A stretch of DNA of 63,577 bases, filler included, from Neolecta irregularis DAH-3 (Eukaryota): NCBI GenBank assembly GCA_001929475.1. It is 8 parts of 8 records of this genome, joined end to end, with 100 filler letters (N's around TTAATTAATTAA, not from the genome) between each part and the next. Parts side by side here need not be neighbours in the genome. Positions count along the whole stretch, not along the records: positions 1 to 10,991 come from LXFE01002681.1; 7 more parts are not named here. The stretch is one strand, 5' to 3'. Below, piece after piece: positions 3,553 through 62,493 of the stretch; the stretch's first letter is position 1; each line of letters opens with the position of its first letter. The notes under the pieces were generated by a model. It ran no database searches, was not told where the DNA came from, and saw only the letters and a program-made list of their open reading frames with translations. Made by a program: the position numbers and the translations under genes.

Positions 3553-3625
3553 TTGCGACAACTGGTTTCGATCCAGCGACCTTCGGGTTATGAGCCCGAC
3601 GACTTAACCACTTGTCCATGTCGCA
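3553..3625 (-). tRNA. Initiator tRNA-Met(CAU)
   Basis: TGCGACA/TGTCGCA acceptor; TCGGG-CTCATAA-CCCGA anticodon arm with three G:C pairs; T-loop ATCGAAA (A54/A60), diagnostic of eukaryotic initiators. Confidence 0.9.
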
Positions 3626-3906
3626 GAATGAATGGTTAAGGAAAGATTTAGTCCTACATTAATTGTTTCCCACCTTGTCCTTGCAACTGTCAAATAAGCT
3701 CTAATAATGCACAAAGGCCGTCATTTATTCAAATACATCCAACCGCCTCATAAAATTTTCGTTCAACTCAGTATATCTTTGTTACAAGTTTAGCTGATTA
3801 CAAGTTGAAGCATTTGAACCTAGTTGTTTCCTCAGTTCCCCGGAGTACTTGGCAATAAAAGTTTATGAAAGCTTCGGCAAACGTCTTTGGTCTTATCACC
3901 CTTTAC

Positions 3907-5974
3907 CTAAATAACATCAACATTAATAATATCGACTGGGTCCTCTGGCCGGTCCAGTTTGTCCGTTTTCAATCTCTCGATCCTGGAGATAACATCCAAT
4001 CCACCAGTCGCTCTTCCAAAGATTGTATGCTTCCCATCCAACCAATTCTATCGAATCAGTTCTAATCTTACTAGAAAACGAAATACCGTCTCTGCTGTAG
4101 TAATGAAGAATTGACTTCCATTTGTGCTTGGACCTGCATTGGCCATAGAGACTGTGAATGGGCGATCATGTTTCAGATCAGAGAATTCATCTTTAAACCC
4201 TCTTCCCCATATCGATTCTCCCCCTGTTCCATCACCCAGTGGGTCACCGCCCTATTCGATCAACATTTATAACAGAGTGTAGGGTACCTGAATCATAAAT
4301 TTCCGAATTACACGATGAAAAATCGTTCGATCGTAATATCCCCGCCTTGCAAGAGTAACAAAATTTTCGACGGCTAGAGGTGCTTTATCAGGATACAATC
4401 GAATTTTGATATCTCCAAAAGTTGTATGAATTATTGCCTCGGTGCCCATCTCCTTTTGAATTTCTTTCTTATTCTCGATATTTAAAATGGTTGGTTTTTC
4501 GTTAAACACATCTCGATCAGAAAGCTTGATATCACTATTTTTCAGATCTCATTTATAAGAGAGATATACTGTTTCGTAAACAAATAGAAACGATTCTTTT
4601 TCCAACCTGTAGCGAAAATGACGGGATCTCGATCTGCCTCAGCTTCAAGAAGAGGATTGTCACTAGCGGCCATTTGCATAGAGACATTTTTCTTGCCTGT
4701 TGGGGCACCTTGGTAAACTGCGATTCGATCGAATCGTATGGAGTCGTCTTTTCCCAAAAGTAGGCGGCATCGATCGGTAAACGTATTGATGACTATTTAT
4801 TACCAAGATCAGAAGACGATCGAATACCTTTGATTCCATATAATGTAGAATAAATGAGGAAATACCCCGATTCATCAAAATAAATGTCACCAGTACATCC
4901 CGATTTCTGCATCTCTCGTTCAACAGCCAGTCGTTTTCCAAATTCAATGTCGTCTAGATGGTAAATTTTGGCCCCATCCGAATGCAAAGTTTCCAGCTGC
5001 GAAAGAGATTCCAGATAGGTCTTTTTGATTTTACCAGTTGAAAAGTCCCATATTTGTAGAACCCGATCAGGAAGGGAGAATGTAGCGAATATGTCATTCT
5101 TGGGAGATATTCGAAGAACTGTAGGTATTGACTTTGACTTTCTGAATTGATATAGATCGGTCGAGGATTTTAGATCCCATAGTCCCTGGGGCTTTGGGCC
5201 TTCGGGAGTCCAGTATTCGATCATCCCGTCGATGTCGACTGATATCGTTGTATTGTATTTAGGATTGTATGACATTAAGTGAACTGGCTTTCGATGAATA
5301 CTGACTGTACTAATAACATGACCACCCGCCATTGCATCGTAGATGTTGATATTACAATCTTGCTCTGACGATCTAAGGTATCAACAATCAGTCTTCCGGG
5401 GTCCGTACACTGCGATTAACTTGCCTTGGGTGTCCTGATTATACACCCAACATGCAGCTTTTGGACGCAAGCCCAATTCGAAAAGGTTGATCATGTCAAT
5501 TCGTATTAGCTAGATTTTCCTTGGAGAGGTACCAAAATTCACTACATCAAATATCCGGACTCCGCCTTCTTCGCCGATACAGACGACAAATACCCCATCA
5601 TAACTAACCTTGACGTCTCGAAAGGGGCCCATGAAAACTCGAAAAACTTTGACGAAATCAATCCCCGTGGCTGTCTTTTTCCAGAATTTAAGACGTCCAT
5701 CAATTGAACACGTAATTATGAAATCTGTAGGAGTAGCAATTATATGCGAGAGGTTCTCTTTATGCATAAATGATGTTGTATAGCGGGGCGTCGAGGGGAG
5801 ATTGCCCAGATATGTCGATTCTCCGGCAAGATGTTTTCGTTTTCTCGATGGAAGAGGCAAATTTGGGCCGACATCATCTTCCGATGAACTGCTCCCATGT
5901 TCTGCTTATTGTAAGAATTACTAGCGATAAAGGAGGTTTCTACCGGCCGGTCGTTTCTTTGGCGACGCAGGCAT
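3907..5974 (-). CDS. cyp15: WD40-repeat cyclophilin (Cyp15/PPWD1)
   Basis: [27 protein letters not shown], then a cyclophilin domain ([26 protein letters not shown]). Multi-exon; one junction (5497-5532) appears to be GT-TG. Confidence 0.93.
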
Positions 5975-6057: not shown

Positions 6058-6286
6058 TCAAGTTCAAATATGCATGGATTTATCTATTCATACTACAAAC
6101 TATGTCTTGGTAATTTCTTTGTAGTATGTGATAAATTGGACAGGGTTGGAAATACTTTTACGCTGANNNNNNNNNNATCAAGTTCGAATATGCATGGATT
6201 TATCTATTCATACTACAAATTATGTCTTGGTAATTTCTTTGTAGTATGTGATAAATTGGACAGGGTTGGAAATACTTTTACGCTGA
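6058..6286. repeat. ~109-bp near-perfect duplication either side of a 10-N gap (unmerged contig overlap)
   Basis: 6058-6166 repeats at 6178-6286 across the Ns. Confidence 0.85.
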
Positions 6287-7881: not shown

Positions 7882-10831
7882 TTACAAGTCTTTGTTGTTG
7901 GTGTCGTCTTTTTCATCGTCTTTTTCATCTTGGTTATTCGTCTCTGTTTCTCCGAGTTGGGTTTGAGCAGGGGGCGGGATGTTGTTTACCCGCGCCGTTT
8001 CAATGCGCGTGGAGTATACTGTTTTTAAAGAAATCTTGTCACCTTGTTCCTGCAAGATATTATCCAATTCTTCTTTTGAAATTTGATTTCCATCGAGATC
8101 GCGATAAACTATTTCTTCTCTGACTACTGCTCCCACTGGGAGTTTCGGTTTTATGTTATCCGGTTGTATGTTATGCGGTTGGATGATATCCGGTATGATA
8201 TCCGGTATGATATCCGACTTGTCAGGACTAGTATGAAGGGTAGGCGATTTCTCGTCTTCTTCAGGCCATGTTCGATTGTAGCCGTCGTACTCAAGTCAGA
8301 ATGTACGTGTGGGGAAATACAGTTTCTGGAAAATGTGTACATCCGAAATCCCAAGATTTTCTCCAAGAGACTTTTTCGCATTGTCCGCGGGTCCAAGGAC
8401 TCGCGTAGACCAATGGCGAGAATAAATGATAGACGATGATTGTAACGATTAAAAAGAGAACGGTCAATGGAGCTACGACCGCTCGACTCGTGATCAACCG
8501 AGTCGTTATAAAATCCCAAAGGTGACAAAAGACAAGAATTGAAAAGTATAGCGCGGGGAGATAATGATGCAGAAAAAGCTGGCGAGACATGAGGAAAAAG
8601 GGAAGATAATGTAATGCCCAGCCCAGGGTGAAAATACCCATATTCCAATCGTACTTTCTCCAAACGGCTATGCGTAAGTAATTGAGGGGAACCAAATTAA
8701 ACTTGCAGTTTGAAGAATCGTCGTATCCTCGTTGCCATCGCAACACAGCAAACAATTTCGCAGTAAAATAAAGGATGATTGAGAAAGTGGCGGTCCACCA
8801 AACAAGGGGATTTCCAAAGAGATAAACTCTTGTACGTGCTCTGTCCCAGAAATTGATACCGCGATATAAAAAGGGCCAGGCAGAGGGCCGTGACTCGTAG
8901 GGATGGGAAGAAGTTAATCCGGCGTTCATGGTCCACATGACCTTTTGCAATTCCCAAAACTTTCCCCAAAAGCCAGGGAGCGAGTAACTGACCAGTTCGT
9001 GGATATTTTCATCGACTAGATGGTGTTAGTATTAGGAGTAAGGGGAGAGGGACATTGTGGATGTTGATTGGTTTCAAAGTACCATAGACTATTTGGTAGT
9101 GTTCCCGATGTGGCGCAAACCACTTCCTGCTGTTCAAACCCCCAGTCTGGTAACTTGACTCTATGACTGAACAGCGCACAACCAGATAATTGATGGACGA
9201 GTCGGAATACAGTATCTATAGTGTGAACACGATCTGAAGAGGAATTTCGAGATTTTTGCTCTACTATTTCGATACGAAAGTTGTCGTTGGCGTCGCCTGG
9301 GAATCCTGGGAATCCATAGGCGCTGACTTCTTTCTGCCAGTCTGCTTCGGTGACGGGCGGGTGGTGGTCGTGTGAATGTAGACGTTTTTCAGTGACGGCA
9401 TGCTTTAAACGGATGAAGGCGCCGTTTGAGATGTATTGCAGATCGAGCGAGTTTGGGTCTAGATCGGTGTAATTGCCGATGATCCATTCATTGTTTTCGT
9501 CTTTATGCGGGTACAAGGTAATCTGTTGTTCTAGAATGAGAAGGGCAAGATATTGAAAGAGTACGTCCAGAGCCCGTTGGGTAATTGTGGGCATGGGAAT
9601 GGAGGTACCCACCCTGGGTATTCAGATGGCGAAGAGTGACTTTGGAGCCAATGGCGACATCTAGGGGTTGGTATTGAAAAGAAAAGACATGCGGGCAAAA
9701 GTGGGAGGCTGGGCTTTGTTTGCAAGCGTTTGCTGGAATTCCGACGACATGAAACCGTCGCCATCGCCGGGATTGGGGAGGAATTCAAAGTGAAGGTAGA
9801 AGATTGAGGCGTAAAAGATGACTGGAAGGAGAATCAGACAAAGAACTCTGGCGGCGAGGTGTCGTGAAAACAAGGTCTAGAGGTTATTTGAATAACGGGA
9901 AGCAGTACGATGGTGATATTGAGATCTGCGAGCAGGGTCCATAATTGGTGGATGGTGAGTAATCCGACCCATGCGATGACGAACAGGCCAACCCATTTGA
10001 CGCTTACTTTTAGTGTGGAGCGAGGGTGCAGGTACCTGCACGTGGCGCCAAGAGCAAGGCCGGTCAAGGTGAGCGACAGCCACCATTCGTAGGAGAAGGG
10101 ACTGTGGTTAGATTATTGGGGGGGGAGAGGTACGAGTGTTGGAACTCTTGGAATGTTGTCCAAAACAAGACTGTTAGGGCGGTGAATGCGATCAAGGGCG
10201 AGTCGAGGAGAATGAAGCGGCTCTGGGTGATGAAGCTGTTTTCTAGGATTAAAAGAAGAAGCGACGGGGAGTACCAAAAGTGACGATGGCGGCGCCGAGG
10301 AAGGCAGTTGTGGTTGCACAATTGGAGGCTTTGAGGATGAGGAAGGTGGTGGGGACGACGAGGATGCCGAAAGAGGCTAGCAGGAATCTCATCATGACAT
10401 AGGGGACACGTGGGGCGAGGTAGTCTCTGCGGGTGAGTAGGCGACGAGGAAGGGCCGTGCTTTCCGATATCCTTAAAGTCGAAGCCGCCGTCGTAGCCAA
10501 AGACCCAGGCGACGAGGGTGATGAGGAGTTTTGCGAGGGGGGGGTGTACGTCGACGAAGAAGGTGCCATTGATGTATTTTCTGGCAAAGCCGCCAAAGTG
10601 GACCTCGTCGAAGACGACGCTGGAGGGGATGCTGAGACGGAAGGTGCGGACAAAGAGGGCGATGAGGGTGAGGGAGAGCAGGAGACGGCGGTCTTTTGCC
10701 GAGAGGTTAGGGAAGGGGGAGAGCGATGGGGAGAGCGATGGGGAGAGCGATGGGGGAGGGGGTGTGGGTGAATGGGGTGAATGGGGCGAATGGGAGGGCA
10801 GCGAGTAGGAGGCCTTGAGACGGAGGGCCAT
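7882..10831 (-). CDS. PMT1: Dolichyl-phosphate-mannose:protein O-mannosyltransferase, PMT1 subfamily
   Basis: VVFDEVHFGGFARKYI..FVDVHPPLAK, SRFILLDS, MIR domains, RQLFLHHYLPALYF; about 10 short introns, up to three with GC donors; PDII/QPDNI repeats in the C-tail. Confidence 0.93.
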
Positions 10832-10991: not shown

Positions 10992-11091
10992 NNNNNNNNN
11001 NNNNNNNNNNNNNNNNNNNNNNNNNNNNNNNNNNNTTAATTAATTAANNNNNNNNNNNNNNNNNNNNNNNNNNNNNNNNNNNNNNNNNNNN
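10992..11091. other. Artificial 100-nt scaffold linker with TTAATTAATTAA core; same linker at 21983-22082, 35106-35205, 42379-42478, 54640-54739, 61122-61221, 62361-62460
   Basis: Identical N-run/six-frame-stop cassette occurs seven times. Confidence 0.97.
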
Positions 11092-25937: not shown

Positions 25938-26019
25938 GGTCGAGTAGCGCAATGGTAGCGTATTGCTTTCCGGTTTCGGAATGTGGCAAAGGTTGCGGGT
26001 TCAAGTCCCGTCTTGATCG
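25938..26019 (+). tRNA. tRNA-Arg(CCG) with 10-nt intron (25974-25983)
   Basis: GGTCGAG/CTTGATC acceptor; TTGCT-TT-CCG anticodon arm; intron CGGAA pairs with the anticodon loop; GGTTCAAGTCC B-box; T-runs downstream. Confidence 0.92.
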
Positions 26020-35105: not shown

Positions 35106-35492
35106 NNNNNNNNNNNNNNNNNNNNNNNNNNNNNNNNNNNNNNNNNNNNTTAATTAATTAANNNNNNNNNNNNNNNNNNNNNNNNNNNNNNNNNNNNNNN
35201 NNNNNAAGAGCTTAGAAAGCAAATACTTCCTAAGCAAAACTCAGCAACCCCTAGATGCACAATATCTTAAATTCTATGTCAAAGAAAGTTCAAACTTTCT
35301 GCAAATTGTCAATGGTATTTATGATCTGCGTAGCTGGAGAATAGAGAATCATCTATAGAGCTGCAAAAATGGGATTGTAGATTTCTCCAAATATTTCAAA
35401 ACAAATTGACATACCAGGCAGGTGTCGTGACAAATAAACATCCAGTCACGCCTGATAACCTCAGCGGAGTTTCACTATTCTCCATTTCAGTC

Positions 35493-42378: not shown

Positions 42379-42485
42379 NNNNNNNNNNNNNNNNNNNNNN
42401 NNNNNNNNNNNNNNNNNNNNNNTTAATTAATTAANNNNNNNNNNNNNNNNNNNNNNNNNNNNNNNNNNNNNNNNNNNNCCTCCCA

Positions 42486-48058: not shown

Positions 48059-49250
48059 TGTGAATTGAGGAAGAGGAAATGAGAGAGGAGCTTCTGGTGG
48101 GTGAGGCTTTTAAATGACCAATACTGCAAAAAAGGGCGGATGACAAGGTCACGCTACCAGCTTGCGATCATATCGGCGCGCATGGCGACATGATCCAGAT
48201 TTAGTTTCTCCTTTTCATTCTTGTTTTTGTTTGTATTTTCTGTCTATGGTCTGCGGAATTTTATACTGTGATTGATGGAGCTGTAACACCGTCCTCGGGC
48301 TTTCTATGCTGCGAAATTCCTGGCTGCCGCTGTCCAGAGATCTTCTGTGCATGTTCAAAAGAGCGCCTGTTACCTCTGTTCAACAAGCTTTAAGAAGCTA
48401 GCCTTTCTGAGGGCATTCAGCTCTTCGTTCAAGACTCGGCCGATTTCTTATGACGGGAGGATGGGTCAGCTGCGAGTCTACATCACGCTTGGCGGCGGTC
48501 ACATTGTTAGCGAAGGGATATATCCTGTCTTGCAACGTTCCACCATTTCTCTCATGAGCGTCGCGAGGAACTCTAAGCCCCGTCTTCCTTCCATGTAGGG
48601 ATGTGAGAGAATCGGGACTATTCGGGAGCCTCAATGCTGGTGAACTTGCCGCAATTCGAGTTATTGACTCCCTCGGAGAAATCTTTATAACCTCCGATTG
48701 ATGATTCTCTTAAAACGGCCACCATCCAAAGTACATACATCCACTTGCTCCACTGGTTTCACTGGTTTCACTAACTCCGATGAAAAACATTGGTCGGAGG
48801 GTTCAGCCCTACTGCCAATTCATGGGGTTCGCCATGGGATAATAAGCCTCCTTCTCCTTTTTTGTGGCAGCCAGTATATTAGGAATTCGAGGAGGATGTG
48901 TTGTTTTTTATTAGAGGTCCCCCCAAAAATATAATTTCTCACACATTAGGAGAAGGAAATCGGCGCCAGCTTAGATCATGGGAACTATTTGGTGATGAAG
49001 AAGAAGGTGAACAGTTAGGTCTTCGCTTTACTAGTGTTTTTGAGAAGAATTCTCGAATTGAGGAACCGAAACTACGTAAAATACAGGACCGGATGCTTGC
49101 AATTGATGATGGGGGATTGTTATTCACAGGTTTCATGGCGCAGATTTTATGTGTTCCAAACGCAAAGTAAATGTTCTTAGCTAGTTGTAATATATGGAAT
49201 TGAATTTCAGTTAATCAAAATATTAGTACACATCAACTTCCAAAACCGAG

Positions 49251-50898
49251 TCACTGCTGCGCTTTCTTGATGGCTTCAAGGAAATCACTGGCCATTTCAG
49301 GCGTTTTTATCCGTAGAGCCCATTGCTCGATACCTGACTCTGTGGCAACTGGTACACGAATATAAGTCTTCTCCATTCTATAAGTTAAATTTTTGTTGAT
49401 CCAGGCATTCTGCATAGTCGGCAGGGCGAAAGCAAGGAGAATACATACCATGATTATTTTCCCATTTCCTTCCACTCGACAGATTATACGACCCTTTCCA
49501 GTTTTCGAGTTTAAGTTGACTTTTGAAATCCCGACACCTTGCAATTCAAGATGACCATTTATATATTTAGTGACTTTTGTTCTGCCAGAATAAATCGTCT
49601 CTTCGTCTTCTTCGCCCTCTCCTTTTGCTAGAGCCAAGTCTTCTTTCTTTGAATCTTCGTCTTTCGACTCTTTATCATCGCTACTGTCATTTTCCTCGTC
49701 CTTTTCAGGGGAAGGTTCGGTTTTTGGCTGAGGAGTGAACGAGAATCCCACATCAGAGCTCTTGAATGTGTTGGGAACTGATTCTGAGCTTGATATTGGG
49801 TTCGCGAAGGAAAATGTGGGGGCAGATCCAAACTTGATACCACGTCCGGGTGTCCAACTGAAGTTTCCTGCAGGGTTTGAAGGCGTGCTGCTTTCGGCTT
49901 TCGGCTTTTCTGACTTATCATCTGTTGTCTTTGAGCTTTCAAATGAGAAGCTTGGTTTATTCTCAGGCGCTTTGAAGACGAATGGAGGGCCAGAAACAGA
50001 GGTGGGAGGCGGTTCAGATTTCGTTGTTGTGGAGCCAAAAGTGAATGGTGAGATTGTAGGCTTATCTGTTTTGGAAGGATTAAAGGTAAAGACAGGCGGA
50101 TTATCGCTCTTTACTGATATGCCAAACACAGAAGAGGGTTTATCTTCAGCTGATTCTCGATTCGCAGATCCGAAAGAAAAAGGAGTTTCTGGGAGAGACT
50201 CGCTAGCTGTATATCCGGACGCTCTAAATAACGAGTCAGCTGTTGGGGATTTGAATCGAAATTCAGGAATATTTTGCGGCACAGTCTCATTTTTATCTAG
50301 CAATGGTGTGGATGGGCCGCTGCTCTTTGGAGATTCAATCTCGTTGTAAAATTCCTGGTATTCCGCTGTAGCTTTTCGCAGATCCACAAAATTATCCGCT
50401 TCAACTGCTGCCCGGACACATTCTTTAAAATGATGATTTAGTCCACGGATCTTCAGTAAACGGTCATATTCCGGATTATCTTGCGGTGTTGGCAGCGGCT
50501 ATGAAATCAGAAAAATATACAGAATTCTAGTTACTGTAGATATTCCTGAGTTGGCTAATGAGGCAAATGGATTTGAAGATGTTTGTGGTTTCTGGAAAGG
50601 GTTGATTTGAGAAAAATTGTCCTGCAATCGGGATCAGTGAATATTTGACAAAGATAGCGAGCATCTCCCACCTTCCTTCGGCTTTTTGGCATGGCAATTC
50701 TGGACCGGTTAGCTACATTCCACTTCATTTGGGCTTACTTTCGTGAAGCCATTTGAGCGGCGGATGCTACTTCAGGCTTCTCTTCAGAACGATCTCGCTC
50801 ATCACCAGGCTTTTCCAGTTAGGAAAGCTTCATTCACTTGGTTGGCATACATCAAAGTCATCTTTAGTAAGTTGGTTTTTAGCTTGTCTTTTGGACAT
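49251..50898 (-). CDS. NUP2: Nup2/Nup61 (Nup50-like) nucleoporin with FxF repeats and RanBD
   Basis: MSKRQAKNQLTKDDFD, RKIAMPK, FSWTPGRGIKF, GEGEEDEETI..GVG..GKGRIICR.EG.G. Confidence 0.9.
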
Positions 50899-54639: not shown

Positions 54640-54739
54640 NNNNNNNNNNNNNNNNNNNNNNNNNNNNNNNNNNNNNNNNNNNNTTAATTAATTAANNNNN
54701 NNNNNNNNNNNNNNNNNNNNNNNNNNNNNNNNNNNNNNN

Positions 54740-56112: not shown

Positions 56113-58447
56113 CTACTCCAATACAACCCTTCCACCAGCCCAAACGAAGCCATAGTTTCTTCGATACCAATTGCAAAAGCCATTTCGTCTCAATGTTGGG
56201 TGTGTTGCCCAGCTTTGCCCGACAACTATATTATGTTTCCCATCAAAAAAGTCAGAGGTATATCCTAGGTAAACATCATCATCTTGAAACAGGGCATGTT
56301 TTTCGAGGCAACTCGACGTCCAATCCCAAAGGCCAGCTTTGGGGAGCCAATAGTGAAATGAAGGAAATGGACTACATGATGGTTGGGATGGAGGTGGACA
56401 ATGGATAGCATTGCCGTTTGAATGCCCATTTATCCCACACTCTCGAATAAGTTCCCAATAAAGCCGCATTTCTCCTTCATTGGGTAATCGTCCTCCGACT
56501 TCTTTTGCAAATCCATCAAGCTCGTCAAAACTTGCTGCAACTGGCCAGTTTCCCGCAATTGAAAGATCAATTGGCCCATAAAATGTCTTCACTTGCCGGT
56601 CATTGGTCCAAGATTTTGGTAGAGGAAGGAGTGGGTGTCTAAAGAGATAGTCGGAATATTGAGAATTTGTTATTTGTGACGATAAACGGAAAGTGGAAAC
56701 AGTGAAACTTCGAGAGGGACTTTCGTTGTCCCACCCATATTTCTCTGATTCATTATCTTGACCTACTCGGAATGATCGCCCAGGAATATCCTTCCACTCA
56801 AGCCCGACAGGTGCTTCAGGACGCATAACAGGCATTGGAAACCCGGGGGGCGAAATGGTTTCATTGCTTTGAACAAGCATGTACAAAAGACTGGTAGTAA
56901 GTGAATCCTAGTTTCAAAGTGATTTACGTTTCAAGATGCATAGCAGTATGTTCAAATCCTAACCAAGTCGCTCTCTTCAGGTTTTCGCTCATGTCACCGC
57001 TGAGAACACTTTTTAGGCGATCCCGGACAACATACATATACAAGAGAATCTCCTGTTTTGATGGCCATGATTTCGGTACAGGTGGGTGTGGGTGACAGGA
57101 CAGGGTTTCTTCATCAGGATCAATTCCTCGCTCAAATATCTTGGAAAAATAAGCATTGGTCGACGGTTCTGATTGAACTCGTGATAGATGAATGTCGATA
57201 AATGCCGGGATGTGACCTTCCTGTTAATCGAGACGGGATCTCTGGATTTACCAAGATAGAAAATACATTCATGACGAGAATCAATTGGTTTCTTGTCAAG
57301 CAATGAATCGGGAATCATTCCTTGGGTGATGAGATCCCACGCATGCCACAAAATATCCCATTCTGCCATTGTAGGAATTTTTGTAGTTGGCTGGGGAAAT
57401 TCAAAAGGTGCAACATATGTGAGGTGAAGATCAATAATTAGCTCAGGAAATGGAAAGCTGATATACCATACATCTCTTGAGAATCTGCCCATCGCCCAAG
57501 AGGGTGCAGTTTGGCTTTTACCCACAAATCGTTTGTTTCTTCTTCGTTCCACTTCCAACTCTCCTCACAAAGAAACTTGGTCCCTGGGTTGACAAAGATA
57601 CCATCGACAAGGTTCATTTTTCGTTTACTAACGTACCATGCTTGATGAGCACCAAGTTCCTCGTCGTATCGTCCTTCATATTCCCAATCATCTCGGTTAA
57701 AAACAGGCTTCCCAAATACTCGATTTGCATGATCGAGACCGTTCAGTATGAATTCTCTAGTAATATGCTCAGAGTCATTATATGCCTTTTGAACTTTATC
57801 CAAGGGATTTCGACGATCAATTCCAATAAGTAGCTGATCGCCTGGATTCAATTTCTTTTGAAATTGACCGAGAAACTGGACTGCCTCATTGCGAGACAAG
57901 TTCCCAATGGATGAACCAAGCCATAATACAACTTTTGGGGTTTGAATGGGAAGCGATGCAAGAAATGCAAGACCGTCATTGTAGGTTCCGTGAAGACCTC
58001 CCGTAGTTACATGAGCATACTTTGGTAGGGCTGAGAGCGATCTTTCGAGTTCGGAGAGGGACAAATCGAGTGCGCAGTAATGAACATCTTTCTTTGCTTC
58101 GTCAAGGGCGGATAGAATGAGATTGGTCTTGCGCAATACGCTACAAGATTTAATAAAGCAAACAAGCACTGGTGGGTGTCACACCCACTGCCTAACTCAA
58201 TGATAATACTTTTATCTTTGACAAAAGTCACAATTTCCTTGGCATGATTCTTCAAAACGTCGAGCTCGGCTTCAGTCAAGTAGTATTCCTTCAAGTGGGT
58301 AATTTTCTCAAACAGTTGAAGACCCTTGTCGTTGTACAAAAGGATAGTTGGAAACTCCCCTTGGCGAAGGTATTCTAAAAGCGAATCCGGCGAATGGCCA
58401 TTGTGCAGATCCGGATGTAAGCGTATATCGACTATAGATGGCACCAT
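56113..58447 (-). CDS. EGT1: Ergothioneine biosynthesis protein 1 (histidine methyltransferase plus sulfoxide synthase)
   Basis: PTILLYNDKGLQLFEKIT..EYYLT, IELGSG, WLGSSIGN, AYNDSE.ITREFILNGL, IFYLGHIP, FEHTAMHLETLLYM, YGWDNE, DFFDGKHN; one junction appears to be GT-TG. Confidence 0.95.
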
Positions 58448-58877
58448 AGTGTTTGACTGAGATGCAATTTTACGGTGGTGGCTATATAAAGACAACTGCG
58501 GGGAGCCCCACTGCGTCACTGAGGCGTTACGTAATGAAACTCAAATAGAATACAAGGCGGACACCAAAGAATGTCTTAGTATCGGTTATCTTCATTATTT
58601 GAAGAAAGCAAAAAGCGCCGGAGACGGGTACCAAGTATTTGTTGATTGAAGTTGTCGAAGGAAATGTCGGTGGAGCGTGACTTGACTCTTAAACTCTGAT
58701 CGGATCTTTAGCCTCTGTTCAGACCTCGAATCCGATCCTCAGTCTCCCTCCATATGAAGGAATCCAGAAGTGACGATTATTTTCCATCCTGCAGTTCCGA
58801 TCCGTGACTAGATTCATTTCTTCAGTCAGACAGTTTCAAGGTTGATGAAAAAATAATGATGTTTCAGGAGCCAAGTA

Positions 58878-61121: not shown

Positions 61122-61221
61122 NNNNNNNNNNNNNNNNNNNNNNNNNNNNNNNNNNNNNNNNNNNNTTAATTAATTAANNNNNNNNNNNNNNNNNNNNNNN
61201 NNNNNNNNNNNNNNNNNNNNN

Positions 61222-62298: not shown

Positions 62299-62493
62299 GT
62301 ATCATTTCAAGATGCTTAGAATGATGGATTAGGTATCATTTCAAGATGCTTAGAATGATGNNNNNNNNNNNNNNNNNNNNNNNNNNNNNNNNNNNNNNNN
62401 NNNNTTAATTAATTAANNNNNNNNNNNNNNNNNNNNNNNNNNNNNNNNNNNNNNNNNNNNCATTACGATGACTCATATCTTTAATATTGTCAT

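Follow-up and report, generated by a model that had tools for sequence, protein, structure and literature searches.

A candidate GT-TG intron in the cyp15/PPWD1 gene of Neolecta irregularis DAH-3, with a companion in EGT1

The stretch of DNA analysed here, 63,577 nucleotides of the Neolecta irregularis DAH-3 genome (assembly GCA_001929475.1) and referred to as the window throughout, carries on its minus strand the gene of a spliceosome-associated cyclophilin, cyp15 (PPWD1 in human), in which a 36-nt candidate intron ends in TG; a second candidate of the same architecture is found in the ergothioneine synthase gene, EGT1. The database protein closest to the former is that of the public gene model (here P0001), to which NCBI gives the name peptidyl-prolyl isomerase cyp15 (Neolecta irregularis DAH-3); its exons can be placed one by one on the window, separated by seven GT-AG introns of 35-39 nt. 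P0001 matches PF00160 and WD40-propeller families, and its residues 17-602 form a single continuous alignment with the best representative at 50% identity. For the 131-aa exon (open reading frame 5510..5905, minus), the best match among solved structures is human PPWD1 in spliceosome structures (E 4.5e-29), with KVFDVVNFD of the human protein aligned opposite RIFDVVNFG of the window. With an N-terminal WD40 propeller, a C-terminal cyclophilin and orthology to human PPWD1, the gene belongs to the PPWD1/cyp15 family, and all its exons and introns outside the disputed site are intact.

At that site the minus strand reads GGA GTC CGG ATA TTT GAT GTA GTG AAT TTT G/GT ACC TCT CCA AGG AAA ATC TAG CTA ATA CGA ATT G/AC ATG ATC AAC (slashes mark splice boundaries). 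Unspliced, the frame runs past FDVVNF into GTSPRKI and then meets an in-frame stop; some segment must therefore be removed from cyp15. Joining 5533 to 5496 by script restores the frame and gives FDVVNFDMIN, in line with the original prediction for 5497-5532, whose coordinates and letters all proved correct on direct reading. Boundaries shifted by one base, as GG...TT (5498-5533), yield an identical mRNA and are indistinguishable even by RNA; GT...TG is preferred because of the donor consensus. The PPWD1 motif given in the prediction is borne out by human PPWD1 (FDVVNFD), by Obelidium (FDVINFDMIN at the same stretch) and by Caenorhabditis angaria (FDIANFDMIN). Conservation was assessed on 152 orthologs, namely the 150 best among 1.84 billion representatives together with Obelidium and C. 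angaria, and the GT-TG and annotated models were compared on the 132 of them that span the eight junction columns free of gaps. The higher score goes to the GT-TG model in 120 of them and to the annotated one in 11, with a single tie; the median difference is +10. Across the four disputed columns, where the GT-TG model places VVNF and the annotated model LIRI, each residue of VVNF is the commonest or near-commonest one: V 90, I 22 and L 9 in column 1 (V versus L); V 24, the commonest, in column 2 (V versus I); S 41, N 40 and T 21 in column 3 (N versus R); and F 92, L 14 and Y 10 in column 4 (F versus I). The Asp immediately following is conserved in 124 of the 132. The family consensus can still be read from the 12 nt assigned to the intron by the public model; these are coding now, or were so until very recently.

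The signals of the candidate were judged with an intron finder that builds chains from codon-usage scores and GT-AG introns of 28-80 nt, with repeated self-training on models of donor, branch site, spacing, acceptor context and length, the disputed intron being excluded from training. It predicted 101 GT-AG introns in the window, mostly of 31-47 nt, which agrees with the roughly 100 introns presumed earlier; their branch site is [C]T[GA]A[CT] (yTrAy), and in 93 of the 101 the branch A lies 6-10 nt from the 3' end. Of the annotated introns, leaving aside the disputed one, it recovers five of six in cyp15 and two of four in EGT1, and since the predicted set includes false joins, all percentiles are approximate. 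Segment 5497-5532 resembles these ordinary short introns in its donor, which is of the GTA type, in its yTrAy branch site at 6-10 nt from the end, in the T at -3 and in its length of 36 nt, which falls within the 34-41 nt of the bulk and is the second commonest (12/101; 34 nt, 13/101), as well as in restoring the frame; its spacing of 9 nt from branch to end recurs in 12/101. It differs from them in its penultimate base, T instead of A, and so lacks the AG end. Scored without the terminal dinucleotide, it reaches 12.88 bits, rank 80/101 from the bottom. As a control for chance, segments of 28-80 nt that begin with GT and score 12.88 bits or more were collected from both strands of the window: 25 end in AG and 48 are spread over the 15 other dinucleotides, with four of the 48 ending in TG and two of these four being the cyp15 and EGT1 cases. 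Chance is therefore not expected to place a pseudo-intron of this quality exactly where its removal brings a conserved motif back together in frame.

Minor-class (U12-type) introns have the donor RTATCCTT and the branch site TCCTTRAY. The candidate shares with that class a non-AG end; its GTACCT donor and GCTAAT branch site (GTACCTCT, GCTAATACG) miss the minor-class consensus in a comparison made by eye. A U12-type intron, translational bypass and readthrough were rejected in view of the full set of U2-type donor, branch and length signals together with the internal in-frame stop.

Two GT-AG segments compete with the candidate in frame (Table 1). The annotated one, 5510-5545, was expected by the original prediction to discard VVNF and to have no obvious branch point, and both expectations hold: the ortholog columns speak for VVNF, and its branch-point score is the lowest when set against all 101 predicted introns. 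The other, 5458-5532, which was absent from the alternatives listed in the prediction, uses an AG 48 nt beyond the branch A, compared with at most 16 nt in all 101 predicted introns, and its removal would cost 13 conserved residues, including the Asp kept in 124/132 orthologs. A further AG nearby, at 5511-5510, lies 13 nt upstream of the TG and 5' of the branch point, and serves as acceptor of the annotated model. Joined to it, the donor of the GT-TG candidate would give a 23-nt intron that is out of frame, so that productive splicing from that donor would be left to the TG.

Table 1. Features of cyp15 and EGT1 discussed in the text, in positions of the window
Feature	Position	Strand	Remarks
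PPWD1/cyp15 gene (WD40 propeller + cyclophilin)	3904..5974	minus	coding span as in public model P0001
Proposed GT...TG intron, 36 nt, phase 1, splitting an Asp codon (G/AC)	5497..5532	minus	removal gives FDVVNFDMIN
5' splice site G/GTACCT (GT at 5532-5531)	5527..5533	minus	2.0 bits, 52nd percentile of 101 predicted introns
Branch-point heptamer AGCTAAT, branch A 5506, 9 nt to intron end	5505..5511	minus	7.1 bits, 70th percentile
3' terminal TG	5497..5498	minus	direct reading; deviant base is plus-strand A at 5498, plus-strand T needed for AG
Codons GTA GTG AAT TTT (VVNF), intronic in public model	5534..5545	minus	ortholog columns and human PPWD1 FDVVNFD
Annotated GT-AG alternative, 36 nt, LIRI replaces VVNF	5510..5545	minus	used by P0001; -0.23 bits, rank 2/101 from bottom
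Third in-frame GT-AG option, 75 nt, first AG past branch point	5458..5532	minus	-2.15 bits, under all 101 introns
Canonical cyp15 intron	4252-4287	minus	donor GTACCC, ending CGAATAG
EGT1 GT...TG intron, 35 nt, phase 1, split Asp codon	57432..57466	minus	G/GTATAT...AGCTAAT TATTG/AT; segment G/GTATAT...AGCTAATTATTG/AT

The companion case resides in EGT1, placed by Pfam at ~56,113-58,540 on the minus strand and on a contig different from that of cyp15 (the window joins several contigs through spacers of 44 N, 12 bases and 44 N at 10992-11091, 21983-22082, 35106-35205, 42379-42478, 54640-54739, 61122-61221 and 62361-62460). The original prediction had referred to an EGT1 intron of like architecture, and its G/GT donor, GCTAAT and ATTG/A are indeed present at 57432-57466. 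Upstream, the frame runs ...LGRWADSQEMY and then into a stop, and the downstream frame reads DLHLTYVAPFEF; the join gives ...RWADSQEMYDLHLTYVAPFEF, to be compared with ...DLYDLHLLHVPPF in Saitoella and ...GTYDLHLLHVPPFDF in Lipomyces. Among the 106 of 119 orthologs that cover the junction, 101 have the Tyr and 92 the His found there. The TG-spliced model outscores the public one in 118 of the 119 (median difference, +70), and the intron signals amount to 13.66 bits, rank 91/101. No GT-AG solution that keeps the frame was found for EGT1, the local GT-AG pairs being far too short on inspection by eye; the next AG downstream leads to a 76-nt intron, out of frame. The public EGT1 model, P0006, cuts coding sequence by way of a 38-nt pseudo-intron (57564-57601, minus; 3.1 bits) so as to shift the frame, and the ~45 residues past it are out of frame, the orthologs matching the frame without the shift. 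The remaining exons and introns of the gene are intact. The EGT1 case is independent of that in cyp15, and it is the stronger of the two.

Both TG introns are in phase 1, split an Asp codon and carry AGCTAAT; in each, the donor is GTA and is preceded by G, position -3 is T and position +1 is A. In their 5' halves the two are unrelated. Of the 101 canonical introns predicted, one has AGCTAAT and 7 have the CTAAT pentamer; the branch pentamer is immediately preceded by AG in 6, position +1 is A in 35, and a G precedes the donor in 36. The rarity of the shared context makes it unlikely that two ordinary introns were hit at random by mutation or base error.

Based on this evidence of sequence, frame, conservation and signal quality, we infer that the T is a real base and that the UG is used, hence that 5497-5532 is a genuine U2-type intron of cyp15, ligated at UG to give FDVVNFDMIN. 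The probability that we assign to this reading is about 0.55, somewhat better than even. The public 5510-5545 model would then be understood as the artefact of a gene predictor restricted to GT-AG. Under every reading discussed below, save the one in which the public annotation is right, the intron occupies 5497-5532 and the public models of cyp15 and EGT1 are wrong at these places.

How a UG could serve can be rationalized from the architecture of the Neolecta introns. In introns so tiny, with the branch A regularly 6-10 nt from the 3' end (93/101), the choice of site for exon ligation would be narrow, and in the cyp15 intron no AG would fall inside the range open to ligation, but a UG would. 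The UG retains the last G of the intron, and in spliceosome structures the last intron G pairs with the first. The strong branch site, perhaps together with the AG abutting it, may compensate for the U at -2.

Introns of the GT-TG type are a known, rare class, of which the Neolecta case would be a new member. TG 3' splice sites have been verified in 36 human genes (PMC2374985). In common with the human U2-type TG sites described there, cyp15 has a GT donor, a U2-type context, TG in place of AG, and an AG within 28 nt; the pyrimidine at -3 and the purine at +1 of the human sites likewise recur in the ATTG/A of both cyp15 and EGT1. Unlike at the human sites of that survey, which are only ever alternatives to a used AG, the nearby AG in Neolecta cyp15 lies 5' of the branch point, which would leave the TG as the sole productive choice. 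The distance from branch to 3' end differs too, being 9 nt in the Neolecta intron and 20-40 nt in humans. Among fungi, the curated annotation of Ganoderma lingzhi counts GT-TG in 22 of ~92,100 introns, or 0.024% (PMC11590231). The combination in a fungal nuclear gene is thus shared with Neolecta; the Ganoderma cases are transcript-based, and the candidates in Neolecta are sequence-based and have the common AGCTAAT...ATTG/A. A search of the literature on N. irregularis introns and on non-canonical GT-TG splice sites in fungi found no paper on Neolecta splice sites.

Several points weigh against a genuine intron ligated at UG. In the human survey, every TG site has a used AG within 28 nt as its alternative and none is the sole 3' site; where natural mutation had turned an AG into TG, neighbouring AGs were activated and not the TG (PMC2374985). 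Two cases in ~103 introns are ~80 times the Ganoderma rate, at which ~0.025 cases would be expected per 103 introns, with a chance of ~3 in 10,000 for two or more. This leaves a choice between a far more frequent use of TG in Neolecta and an origin of both cases as alleles or lesions. The AGCTAAT common to the two introns was noticed post hoc; GCTAAT and ATTG/A, however, had been named in advance by the original prediction. The self-trained predictor is crude, with both false positives and false negatives, and a homology-supported annotated intron (58141-58184, minus) scores just 2.9 bits, so that a low score by itself cannot disqualify 5510-5545. The annotated model also scores higher in 11 of the 132 orthologs. 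Finally, a direct duplication of 109 nt at 98% identity (6058-6166 and 6178-6286) flanks a 10-N scaffold gap; it has the appearance of two haplotypes whose overlap was left unresolved, and suggests a polymorphic sample in which the T could be one allele. The last point bears on the possibility that the intron lies at 5497-5532 and the true, or another, allele has AG, with the T at -2 arising from an assembly or consensus error or representing a minor or sheltered allele. We consider this unlikely. The observed CGAATTG is one A-to-T change away from CGAATAG, with which another cyp15 intron (4252-4287) ends; the draft assembly contains N gaps, and the DNA came from field fruiting bodies, of which both DNA and RNA were sequenced (PMC5309816). 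The failure of TG to serve as sole site in the human data points in the same direction. Consensus error at one given base is, on the other hand, made very unlikely by the published 199-fold coverage (PMC5309816), and two hits to the same base in ~103 introns, both to T and both alongside an AGCTAAT otherwise seen in 1/101, are hard to obtain by chance. The earlier contention that two cases speak against a random base-call error is accordingly reasonable at such coverage, and what it leaves standing is allelic variation, to which the duplication may point. No sign of further consensus errors was found in the genes checked. A frameshift suspected in the protein O-mannosyltransferase (PMT) gene near 10,440 is explained by a GC-AG intron, not by sequencing error: 34 nt long (10427-10460, minus), it joins the frames of the PMT domain as ...FDFKDIGK/DYLAPRVPYVMM. 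It was read by eye from the sequence and two frame translations, having been missed by the GT-only predictor.

A real T might also go unused, cyp15 being a recent hypomorph or null in which the intron is retained or spliced to the next AG (5458-5532). The behaviour of the human AG>TG mutants (PMC2374985) would fit with this, as would the fact that the first AG past the cyp15 branch point is in frame; in EGT1, the next AG would result in a frameshift. Both genes, however, are otherwise intact, two splice-null genes among ~30 in the window would imply hundreds genome-wide, and the 75-nt option suffers from the distant AG and from the loss of the conserved Asp noted above. Such damage to the genes is thus regarded as quite improbable. 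Improbable to a still higher degree is that the public annotation is right and that GT-AG 5510-5545 (or 5510-5542) is spliced, so that cyp15 has LIRI for VVNF. The model is canonical, 36 nt long, in frame, open and deposited, the 11 orthologs favour it, real introns can score low on this matrix, and 99.4% of the gene models are stated to be supported by RNA-seq, at the gene level only (PMC5309816). Accepting it would require that the 12 nt spelling the consensus VVNF become intronic and that a perfect AGCTAAT, placed 9 nt from a G, become exonic, for an intron having the worst branch-point score of 101 and a negative total; 120 of the 132 orthologs disfavour it. Furthermore, the GT-AG workaround adopted by P0006 in EGT1 destroys ~45 conserved residues, which shows the predictor to force GT-AG solutions.

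If the TG is real and used, genes for a spliceosome-associated cyclophilin and an ergothioneine synthase depend on a sole non-AG 3' site, contrary to the conclusion of the human survey that sole TG sites do not occur. For TG to be the sole site in ~2% of introns would be unusual. As a tentative extension of the UG-ligated reading, which we hold possible and rather doubtful, Neolecta might have a small class of introns, ~1-2% of the total, with UG as the only 3' splice site. Members of this class would perhaps be marked by a strong AGCUAAU branch site 6-9 nt upstream together with an AUUG/A context, and their second catalytic step might be set mainly by the branch-point distance and the last G. 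Were the class real, it could no longer be held that TG never acts as sole 3' splice site, and public Neolecta models would be systematically wrong at such sites. Predictors confined to GT-AG would be expected to repeat the same error elsewhere in the Neolecta genome. Introns of 36 nt with 6-9 nt between branch and 3' end would offer, in addition, a natural and clean test bed for site choice in the second step.

The window was also scanned for non-AG ends with the final model and a 5-bit penalty, giving 104 AG and 17 non-AG calls (AA 6, TT 3, TG 3, and AT, GG, TC, CG and AC 1 each), most of the latter intergenic or beside a canonical site. The tally is too noisy on its own to demonstrate TG enrichment, and ortholog support exists only for cyp15 and EGT1. 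The third TG call (49216-49254, minus; 9.7 bits, TACTAAT branch site) immediately follows the stop codon of a RanBP1-domain gene and is unneeded for the frame; it was rejected because the in-frame TGA closing that open reading frame, whose domain match is by then complete (profile position 121/122), overlaps with its donor. It is probably a chance match or 3' untranslated sequence. Other ways of finding introns were abandoned: a finder joining open reading frames with thresholds of at least 40 codons was too noisy, loose regular expressions gave 175 and 200 matches, barely above a shuffle mean of 150, and an expectation-maximization run with too low a penalty diverged to ~1,500 introns. Searching metagenome contigs with P0001 returned four loci, matched in the cyclophilin domain only at 53-55% identity, in which a motif scan found no FD..NFDM-type stretch; among transcript-derived protein fragments of 72-230 aa there were two matches at 47-51% identity, none near-identical.

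Around cyp15 itself, the first annotated intron (5905-5943, minus) has a low score of 4.5 bits and the public model starts at 5974; the 5' end of the gene model may need revision too. Just downstream of the gene, ARAGORN calls a tRNA-Met gene at 3553-3625 (minus). An 82-nt tRNA at 25938-26019 (plus; Rfam, 52.7 bits) is not called by ARAGORN, possibly on account of an intron.

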